Source of the DNA: Stx2-converting phage Stx2a_F349
Strand: one strand, 5' to 3'
Sequence record: AP012530
Length of the DNA stretch: 59,872 nucleotides
How positions within the stretch are numbered: position 1 is the stretch's first letter; each line of letters opens with the position of its first letter. This document shows positions 18,001 to 21,000 of this stretch, piece by piece. The position numbers are program-made.

Positions 18001-21000
18001 TGGAAAGATGGTGAAGAAGGTGCTTATGCGATGGGTTATGAGGATGGGCGTGACAAAACGGTAATTGCAGTAATGAAAGCCATCAGGGCCGCAGGAATCA
18101 AAGAAAAGAATTTCGATTAAGCAAATATCACTTCAATAAATCGCTTTTAAGGCATCACAATCGCTCTGTGGTGAGGTAAGCACGTGCAAGGTATACCGAT
18201 AAGCAGCGAGAATGAAAAATGCGTCAGAATGCGTTTGAGGAGGTTTTAAGAAATGAGTACGATAGCTGAGCTTGTCAGGGCTAATTTTCGTGAAGAGTTG
18301 GTGCGTTGGTATCGGTATCGTTCATCGTCCAGTTTGCCGCTTGATGAGTTGTATGAGCATTCACCTGCCGCACGACGCTATCCGCGTGACCGTGTTCTTC
18401 GACGGTTGTTCAAACTCAACAATGAGTTTCAGCGCAACAGAATTATCCGGAGTCTGGATTTTAAGTGAAGGAGTGAGCATGAGCGACCTATCATTAACCC
18501 AGCCAAAGCTAAAAGAATGTCCGTTTTGCGGCGGTAATGCTCGTCTGTGGGTTGAGGCCGGAATAAATATTGATGTGTGGGGCTATGCAGAATGTGACCT
18601 CTGTGAAGCCAGGGTGGCATGGGCACCATCAGTTGCTGCGGCTACTGAAAAATGGAACCGGAGAGCAGGAGATGAAGCAAACCTTTCTGCTTCGCAACGA
18701 AGCAATCAGAAATAACGCCATAGACGCCATTCTCTCACTACCCATCGACGACAAGTCACCCCACGAAGTCCACGTTAAAGAACCCAAGCGCAGCAAAGCG
18801 CAGAATGACCGCATGTGGCCGATGCTGAACGATGTTTCGCGTCAGGTGCTATGGCATGGTCAACGGCTGGCGCCGGAAGACTGGAAAGACCTGTTCACTG
18901 CCCTGTGGCTTAAGACCAAAAAACTGGAGCAAAGAAGTGCGCCTGGTATCGACGGTGGCGTTGTCATGCTTGGCGTGCGTACCAGCAAAATGCGAAAGGC
19001 CAGCATGACTGAGCTTATCGAAATCATGTTCTGGTTCGGCTCAGAGCGCAACGTGCGGTGGAGTGATGACTCCCGGCGAGAGTATGAATGGTCACAACGA
19101 AAAGGGAAGGCTGCATGACTATCAAATCAAATACGCCAGCACACGACAAGGACTGCTGGCAAACGCCGCTCTGGCTTTTTGATGCGCTGGATATTGAGTT
19201 TGGATTCTGGCTGGATTCAGCTGCGAGCGACAAAAACGCTCTGTGCGCTCACTGGCTAACTGAGGCTGACGACGCGCTAAATTCTGAGTGGATAAGCCAC
19301 GGTGCAATCTGGAATAACCCACCGTACAGCAATATCAGGCCCGTGGGTGGAAAAAGCCGCTGAGCAGTGCATACAACAGCGACAGACGGTAGTGATGCTT
19401 GTGCCAGAGGATATGTCTGTCGGATGGTTCAGCAAGGCTCTGGAGAGTGTTGACGAAGTTCGCATCATCACTGATGGACGGATTAATTTTATCGAACCAT
19501 CGACAGGGCTGGAGAAGAAGGGAAACAGCAAAGGCTCAATGTTGCTGATTTGGCGACCGTTCATCAGTCCTCGACGGATGTTTACTACCGTATCCAAAGC
19601 GGCATTGATGGCGATCGGGCTGGGCGTCAGGAGGGCTGCATGAGGCGACAGCGACGAAGTATCACCGACATCATCTGCGAAAACTGCAAATACCTTCCAA
19701 CGAAACGCTCCAGAAATAAACGCAAGCCAATCCCAAAAGAATCTGACGTAAAAACCTTCAATTACACGGCTCACCTGTGGGATATCCGGTGGCTAAGACA
19801 TCGTGCGAGGAAAACAAGGTGATTGACGTGATGATTTATTCGGGGCTATATTCCTCAAACGCCAGCAAAATCTGGCGTCGGGATTGGCGTCCTGGATAGA
19901 GACCGCGACAGATACACGCCGCGAGCGTGTTTTTTATTGTCGTATGCACGCGCACATCTGAATTATGGTGGGCTGTGTGGGGGCGGAGAGATCCGCGCCG
20001 GTCGGTTTCCCGGTTACGCCAACCCTGCACAGTTCACCACCAGACGATTGGCGTCGTCGGTGGTGAGTTATTAAGAAACCACCAGAGGGCGTCATTATGA
20101 CAACTAAAATTTCTGTTGAAACTCTCTCCCCGATCACCCATAACCAGATTCCTGTTATTACCACCGAACTTTTGGCGCAGCTTTACGGCACTGAGCCGGT
20201 GCGTATTCGCCAGAATCATCATGAGAACAAAGTACGCTTCGTTGAAGGGAAACACTTTTTCAAAGTTGTTGGTAATGACCTTAAAGAATTGCGGGTAGCT
20301 TTAAACTACTCACAAAATTTGCGGGTTACTTTAAGTAACTCACAAAATTTGCGGGTTACTTTAAGTAACTCACAAAATTTGCAACCATCTTTAAGAGGGT
20401 TACAAATTTCCCCGAAAGCCCGCTCCCTCATCCTCTGGACAGAACGCGGCGCAGCCCGTCACGCAAAAATGCTCGAAACCGATCGGGCGTGGGAAGTGTT
20501 CGAAAAACTGGAAGACTGCTATTTCAGCCAGTGCGAGAAAAATACTGGCAAACAAGAGAAGAAGCTCAACGGGCTTTCCGCAAAAGAAACAGACAGCCTT
20601 GTATGGCTGTGGGATTATGCCAACCGCTCACAGGCATTGTTCCGTGAGTTGTATCCCGCATTAAAACTGATTCAGTCTGGCTATTCCGGCATATGCCACG
20701 ACTACGGCTATGAGTTCTCGTATATCATCGGGAGGGCGAGGGGCGTTTTAATTAATCACACGCGGGATATAGATATTTATGAGCCTGACGGGCCGACGAA
20801 CCTTCTGGCATGGGAAAGGCTTAAGAACAAAGAGTTGCCGCCTTCACTGCATCGCTACTGACAATTGACAACTTAACAAACCCAGCTTCGGCTGGGTTTT
20901 TTATTGCTGAATTTTCAATGTGAGAGGACATGACAATGAATGAGCTGATAAATAGCAATGCCATCAAAATGACAAGCATTGAAATCGCTGAGTTGGTGGG

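Follow-up and report, generated by a model that had tools for sequence, protein, structure and literature searches.

The antirepressor Ant of Salmonella phage P22 binds and inactivates the immunity repressor, and in the immI region of phage P1 ant is controlled by the c4 antisense RNA. Phage regulators that carry Bro-N, KilA-N, ORF6N, or P22AR-N domains reportedly exchange these domains, a domain shuffling that Iyer, Koonin and Aravind are said to have described in 2002. Here we analyze a stretch of 59,872 nucleotides from the Shiga toxin 2 (Stx2)-converting phage Stx2a_F349 (sequence record AP012530; this whole stretch is referred to as the window), in which the 3' end of an antirepressor gene, together with its terminator, occurs twice. 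In the Gifsy-1 prophage, the small RNA (sRNA) IsrK activates translation of an antirepressor-like protein, leading to prophage induction (Hershko-Shalev et al. 2016, PMC4825925). Fogg et al. (2011, PMC3064807) reported that the nin region of phage Phi24B encodes an Ant that shares 82% identity with P22 Ant over its final 104 residues. Knockout of this gene reduced late-promoter (pR') activity after norfloxacin to approximately 27 to 56% of that of the wild type, a defect that was partly complemented (PMC3064807).

The window corresponds to the Stx2c-converting prophage 1717 of E. coli O157:H7 (NC_011357/FJ188381; 99.8 to 100% identity), and a window position is approximately the NC_011357 record position minus 657. 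That record already annotates both genes concerned as "anti-repressor Ant." Since existing annotation or publications cover the two genes, the module, and the likeness that these bear to P22 Ant, the feature is already known; it is one case of a published mosaic module and of ordinary mix-and-match phage evolution. As read from domain and terminator matches, the repeated unit is the 3' module of P22 ant plus t_ant, that is, a P22_AR_C domain of 104 aa with the P22 ant terminator. Very probably, two paralogous ant genes entered the lambdoid Stx2c prophage within two different regulatory cassettes, and the repeat is the 3' module that they have in common. The two copies of the repeat (A and B), the genes that they end (ant-A and ant-B), and the predicted terminators are as follows.

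20547..20901, plus strand: repeat copy A, comprising the 3' end of the nin-region ant, spacer, and terminator (BLASTN, alignment)
49178..49532, plus strand: repeat copy B, comprising the 3' end of the tail-region ant, spacer, and terminator (BLASTN, alignment)
20097..20861, plus strand: ant-A, ORF6N (aa 12-125) plus P22_AR_C (aa 155-226), 254 aa (Pfam; PHROG 377; record annotation)
48569..49492, plus strand: ant-B, P22_AR_N plus P22_AR_C, 307 aa (Pfam; PHROG 245; full-length alignment with P22 Ant)
20878..20905, plus strand: predicted terminator after ant-A, 9-bp stem, TTCG loop, T6 (terminator scan; fold -16.1 kcal/mol, z -4.2)
49509..49533, plus strand: predicted terminator after ant-B, same hairpin, T5 (fold -17.2 kcal/mol; alignment to the P22 terminator)

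When both regions were compared by BLASTN, 20547-20901 and 49178-49532 formed one alignment with 82.6% identity over 357 columns and four gap openings (E, 1e-88 in the pairwise comparison and 1.9e-85 in a self-comparison of the whole window). Both copies lie on the plus strand in direct orientation with a spacing of 28,631 bp. They constitute the sole long dispersed direct repeat of the window, the remaining self-matches being local tandem arrays. An earlier note on this DNA, made by eye from its sequence, had described a direct repeat of about 330 bp, about 80% identical and spaced by 28.6 kb, and the alignment bears this out. Its coordinates for the two copies (20575-20905 and 49205-49535) were placed within the repeat but missed the true 5' edge, which is 28 bp further upstream, while the limits that it gave for the first gene (20097..20861) were correct. 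This 5' edge is sharp and is located at GGCAAACAAGAGAAGA (protein GKQEK). Downstream of it, the repeat contains the last 104 codons and the stop codon of both genes, a diverged spacer of approximately 20 nt, and a hairpin with a T-run, just 3' of which the similarity ends. At the protein level, 86 of the 105 aligned positions of the coding part are identical, with the stop counted. The copies are 17% diverged overall, and the longest perfect tract that they share measures 29 bp and is the sole tract of at least 23 bp.

The hairpin ACCCAGCTTCGGCTGGGTTTTT (ACCCAGC-TTCG-GCTGGGT) is the same in copies A and B. Both hairpins match the annotated ant terminator in the phage P22 record, with 22 of 22 hairpin bases kept. 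In either case, the gene is followed by a GC-rich hairpin and then a T-run, as is typical of Rho-independent terminators, and both are predicted to function as such. The ant-B terminator was missed by the plus-strand scan because of its shorter T-run, and the same hairpin was reported on the minus strand.

Upstream of the common module, the two proteins have different domains. The N terminus of ant-A is ORF6N (PF10543; 66.8 bits versus a gathering score of 27.8; E, 2e-18), as had been suggested by eye, and is joined to P22_AR_C (PF10548; 83.3 bits versus a gathering score of 22.4). Alignment of ant-A with P22 Ant is limited to the last 104 aa, where the identity is 83%, so that with its ORF6N N terminus ant-A does not have the full-length architecture of a P22-type Ant. 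Inside its ORF6N domain we also noted an in-frame 30-bp tandem repeat of 3.1 copies (20289-20382), which amounts to an insertion of about 28 aa and is not present in the allele of phage JLK-2012.

The second gene, ant-B, can be aligned with P22 Ant end to end (56% identity over 300 aa; E, 4e-118), and the identity exceeds 90% in the last 104 aa. Its N terminus is P22_AR_N (PF10547; 135.4 bits; E, 1.3e-39), and its P22_AR_C domain scores 102.2 bits at aa 248-320 of the long open reading frame (ORF). The translation start is most likely ATG 48569 rather than the upstream TTG 48446, as judged by the RefSeq annotation and the alignment with P22 Ant. A KilA-N-like N terminus had been assigned to this protein in the earlier note. 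We reject that label, since the N terminus is P22_AR_N and Pfam gave no match to KilA-N (PF04383) in ant-B at an E value of 0.01 or less; the true KilA-N protein of the window is encoded by a separate gene (record positions 30811-31308). The more general proposal of a common C-terminal antirepressor domain with its terminator, joined to different N-terminal partners, is upheld by both Pfam and the alignment. NCBIfam assigned neither the two Ants nor Roi, the product of the gene next to copy A, to a family.

The surroundings of ant-B closely resemble the immI region of P22, in which a divergent mnt gene, arc, ant, and a terminator follow one another; the same order is mirrored at 47897-49533. 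The block to which ant-B belongs is situated between the tail genes L and K and has the following components.

47881..49565, no strand assigned: immI-like cassette between tail L (stop at 47880) and K, a block of about 1.7 kb (empty-site comparison)
47897..48241, minus strand: Mnt-like ribbon-helix-helix repressor gene, divergent from arc/ant (Pfam Arc; E, 2e-20)
48325..48498, plus strand: Arc-like small repressor gene, directly 5' of ant-B (Pfam Arc, 22.1 bits; gathering score, 20.4)
48503..48569, minus strand: candidate sar-like antisense RNA over the ant-B ribosome binding site (RBS) (Rfam sar, 29.5 bits; E, 0.0023; below the gathering score of 43)

The corresponding empty site is found in phage Lys8385Vzw, where the L stop codon, 5 nt, and the ATG of K follow each other. 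Hence, the cassette also provides the RBS and approximately the first seven codons of tail K. The Mnt-like protein shares 49% identity with P22 Mnt over the N-terminal 43 aa of the latter, and the Arc-like protein is 30% identical to P22 Arc (E, 7e-6); promoter-like sites are present at 48251-48326, ahead of the Arc-like gene. In the gap between arc and ant, the sar candidate has a terminator with a 14-bp stem (48506-48537) and a putative -10 box, TAAACT (48575-48580). Its position, orientation, terminator stem, and -10 box all align with the annotated sar of P22, which makes a sar-like RNA at this site likely but unproven. Gene order, divergent promoters, the arc-ant hairpin, the terminator hairpin, and a location in the late or tail region are thus shared by P22 immI and the surroundings of copy B. 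The settings differ, however. In P22 immI lies upstream of the tailspike gene, whereas here a siphovirus-like Stx prophage carries the cassette between its lambda-type L and K tail genes. Copy A, in contrast, has just the C-terminal module and the terminator in common with P22 ant.

The region preceding ant-A is of another kind and contains RNA elements known from the Gifsy-1 and P1 systems. These elements, together with the gene that follows copy A, are listed below.

19859..19935, plus strand: isrK-family sRNA, 5' of ant-A (Rfam RF01394, 74.7 bits; gathering score, 50)
19846-19898, plus strand: C4 a1/b1 target element, overlapping isrK (RF03163, 45.9 bits; gathering score, 46.7)
19914-19930, plus strand: predicted terminator of isrK itself (scan)
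19823-19852, plus strand: promoter-like site of isrK (scan)
19961..20044, plus strand: C4-type antisense RNA (P1/P7 immI type), between isrK and ant-A (RF01695, 66.7 bits; gathering score, 45)
20930..21658, plus strand: roi, with a Rha-like N terminus and a KilAC/ANT domain, directly 3' of copy A (Pfam, annotation)

The locus therefore contains an isrK match above the gathering score, followed by the antirepressor gene ant-A. The C4 element ends 53 nt before the ATG of ant-A, and a small ORF (19927-20100) terminates in a TGA that overlaps the ant-A start codon (ATGA). By layout, this can be likened to the Gifsy-1 region isrK-orf45(STnc1160)-anrP and broadly to the c4-ant arrangement of P1 immI. 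An icd-like gene was not identified, although no homology comparison aimed at icd was made. The 10-mer GAUUGGCGUC is common to isrK and the ant leader and is, by eye, complementary to ACGCCAA of C4. RNAduplex energies of C4 with either the ant leader or isrK were not better than those of shuffled controls. As this control does not discriminate, pairing of C4 with its targets is suggested by the Rfam matches and the complementarity seen by eye.

With respect to its location, ant-A is equivalent to the Ant genes of Phi24B, 933W, and VT2-Sakai, which occupy the same place in the ninE-roi interval upstream of Q. The homologous region of VT2-Sakai is 96% identical in DNA to the ant-A region. When compared by the published figure, the Phi24B protein resembles P22 Ant in its final 104 residues alone, as ant-A does (82% and 83%, respectively). 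Unlike the Phi24B type, the ant-A allele carries the 3 x 30-bp tandem repeat in ORF6N, and the prophage has a second, P22-type ant in addition.

The module is not confined to these two partners. In a search of 1.84 billion representative proteins, which gave 28 hits, ten of these and ant-A were scanned with Pfam. The same module, at 80 to 85% identity, was found fused to Bro-N, P22_AR_N, and KilA-N fragments. The ORF6N partner was seen in ant-A and in one representative at 60% identity, and several N termini without a Pfam match were present on the same module. The GKQEK boundary recurs among these proteins. Judged by such domain assignments, varied N termini on one C-terminal module are an instance of the domain shuffling for which this protein class is well known. 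Beyond the general picture of shuffling, the present case offers two variants in one genome, DNA homology that extends into the terminator, and hybrids that document exchange at the DNA level (see below). Two further proteins from the same search may be mentioned. One, of 254 aa, consists of a LysR helix-turn-helix domain, part of the substrate-binding domain, and the last 45 positions of P22_AR_C; it may have been left behind when a prophage inserted into a host gene, or it may be a chimera produced by assembly. The other, of 1,547 aa, has 15 stretches that match the module.

How might these elements work together? Copy A belongs to a cassette of the Gifsy-1 or P1 immI layout in which an Ant of the Phi24B type (ORF6N plus P22_AR_C) is placed in the nin region behind isrK/C4. 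Copy B is the ant end of a P22 immI-like cassette between L and K, made up of an mnt-like gene, an arc-like gene, a candidate sar, ant, and the terminator. P22_AR_C may represent the common effector part of Ant that engages in protein-protein contact and binds the repressor, while the variable N termini and the upstream RNA and repressor elements would supply different control. The terminator travels with the domain and, in the lysogen, might keep ant transcription out of the genes that follow, either roi-ninG-Q or tail K-I-J. In lytic growth, polymerase modified by N or Q would be expected to read through it. Conceivably, the terminator is co-inherited because the operons in which both cassettes reside require antitermination, with PR/N acting in the nin region and PR'/Q in the tail genes. 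The homology, with its edge at GKQEK, is a mosaic joint that recurs among phages and where they have swapped N-terminal domains as well as whole cassettes.

Several observations weigh against this interpretation. Binding of CI by either Ant, and the domain that would carry it out, are what we infer from the likeness to P22 Ant, and the lowered pR' activity of the induced Phi24B ant knockout supports such binding only indirectly. AlphaFold2 confidently predicted a long helical hairpin and a short helix for the 104-aa module (predicted local distance difference test score, 86.8). A Foldseek search against the Protein Data Bank (PDB) gave generic helical bundles only (best E, 2.2), phmmer against PDB sequences gave nothing meaningful, and the module has no solved homologue in these searches. 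With no informative structural neighbor, we draw no mechanistic inference from the predicted fold. The scores of two of the RNA elements are also low, the a1/b1 element being marginally below its gathering score and the sar-like RNA clearly so by the values listed above. The threefold 30-bp tandem repeat in the ORF6N domain might impair ant-A. Finally, the large terminase gene (window 32856-35830) is split by the insertion sequence (IS) IS629 into an ATPase part (32856-33488) and a nuclease part (34814-35830). Consequently, this prophage can probably not package its own DNA, and it is uncertain whether its lytic regulation is under selection.

The presence of two copies with sharp boundaries in one genome could suggest a recent duplication by which one ant gene acquired a copy of the 3' end and terminator of the other. 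However, the coding parts of A and B (105 codons) differ by 0.74 synonymous substitutions per site (dS) at a ratio of nonsynonymous to synonymous substitution (dN/dS) of 0.14, indicating that the copies are old and under purifying selection. Over the repeat, the DNA identity is 80.9% between A and B, 80.6% between A and P22, and 87.9% between B and P22. Copy B is thus nearer to the Salmonella phage than to copy A, which excludes a duplication within this genome. Moreover, each copy is part of a different, independently widespread cassette, and the module is also found with at least five other N-terminal partners. On the basis of the dS and the identities with P22, we reject a duplication in situ, to which we give practically no credence. 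It might also be argued that the similarity has been kept mainly for reasons at the DNA or RNA level, such as a regulatory RNA or a recombination signal, rather than for a protein domain. The hairpin, kept in 22 of 22 bases beside a diverged spacer, and the sharp 5' edge of the homology would fit this idea. In contrast, most of the substitutions in the coding part leave the protein unchanged, as reflected in the dN/dS and in the 86 identical protein positions out of 105; both genes give a strong hidden Markov model match to a protein domain, and no Rfam family matches the coding part. We therefore consider such an explanation very improbable.

A different matter is whether the repeat serves as a substrate for deletion. 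The earlier note had pointed out that homologous recombination between the copies could remove the region with stx and the head genes. Indeed, the 28.6-kb interval carries roi, Q, stx2c, and the lysis, head, and most tail genes, and recombination by RecA or Red would remove it to give stx-negative derivatives. For this to occur at a meaningful rate, it is relevant that the copies are direct and 355 bp long with a perfect tract of 29 bp, that the phage encodes Red exo/bet/gam in addition to NinB and NinG, and that hybrid repeats elsewhere show exchange within the module to be possible. Nonetheless, given the requirement for a minimal efficient processing segment and the barrier imposed by mismatch repair, exchange by RecA or Red is expected to be rare at 17% divergence with one tract of at least 23 bp. 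We searched all complete E. coli RefSeq genomes with a junction query composed of 600 bp 5' of A, the repeat, and 600 bp 3' of B. The predicted ORF6N-repeat-tail K junction was found in 0 of 5,426 genomes at a query coverage of at least 80%, although 4,484 contain parts of the query and thousands carry each half. Both copies are, moreover, stably kept 27 to 30 kb apart in at least five O157 chromosomes among those listed, and each copy matches the window at 100% identity across the 955-bp segments that were compared. The deletion product, of about 31 kb, would have lost Q and the lysis and head genes and so could last only as a defective prophage. Hence, a deletion of this kind at a meaningful rate seems unlikely to us, and the repeat as a route to toxin-gene loss finds no support in the 5,426 complete genomes.

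Recombination at the module as such is borne out on an evolutionary scale. A query of the reciprocal type (5' of B, the repeat, and 3' of A) was fully covered in three genomes: O55:H7 DEC5E (phage JLK-2012), STEC346, and RM10410. All three carry an mnt-arc-ant cassette in the nin region, with roi directly after it. The ant gene of this cassette, of the P22_AR_N type, has a C-terminal sequence that is either A-type or a patchwork of A and B and is followed by roi. The cassette of JLK-2012 is 98.1% identical to window positions 47882-49532. The ORF6N gene of JLK-2012 and STEC346 breaks off 84 bp into the repeat, and the left junction lies at the microhomology GGATTATGCC, which leads to the first base after the tail L stop codon of a 1717-type cassette. 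On the right, the change from B-type to A-type sequence coincides exactly with the 5' edge of the repeat in STEC346 and RM10410, and JLK-2012 displays an A/B/A patchwork inside the repeat. Thus, exchange at the module has happened, as a relocation of the cassette and not as the proposed deletion. Over evolutionary time, the repeat is a real mosaic joint and a substrate for conversion, in keeping with the standard picture of lambdoid phages.

In this context, we observed that the first 16 bases of the cassette (47881-47896, TGGATTATGCCCACCG) agree at 14 of 16 positions with an internal part of the repeat (20612-20627, GGGATTATGCCAACCG), and that the left junction of JLK-2012 and STEC346 is found here. 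This likeness could be what remains of a P22_AR_C fragment, or it could have arisen by chance and been made use of in recombination. A bolder proposal would be that the module acts as a portable homology handle that moves the complete immI cassette (mnt-arc-sar-ant) between the tail and nin regions and that both Ants, by way of a common effector domain, converge on the same repressor. JLK-2012 and STEC346 would fit the handle part, with a left junction at GGATTATGCC and a right junction in the repeat. We regard the combined proposal as speculative and rather doubtful. If it were true, the isrK/C4 circuit of P1/Gifsy type and the Mnt/Arc/sar circuit of P22 type could provide control of Stx induction that is independent of the SOS response and acts across prophages in polylysogenic O157 strains.

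Irrespective of this proposal, antirepressors can trigger or speed the induction of Stx prophages and hence the release of toxin, and two differently wired ant genes in one prophage are therefore relevant to the control of Stx. The common module helps explain how ant circuits are reshuffled among the prophages of O157.

Some other features of the window were noted in passing. Within IS629, between the two terminase halves, lies an ALIL frameshift pseudoknot (34344-34460), and a second insertion sequence, ISEc8, is annotated after the helicase gene (record positions 14876-17317). A match to the STnc100 family of sRNAs (158 bits) follows closely after stx2cB, and the interval between Q and stx2cA contains three tRNA genes.

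25375-25586: STnc100-family match
23724-23964: tRNA genes

A gene annotated as encoding a portal-like protein contains a 162-bp tandem repeat of 3.7 copies that are 97% identical (39569-40161), the period being a multiple of 3. Further downstream, a 45-bp tandem repeat (56276-56366) encodes a collagen-like Gly-X-Y stretch and a diverged repeat, whose unit measures about 99 bp, occupies 56108-56325; both are presumably part of a tail fiber gene.

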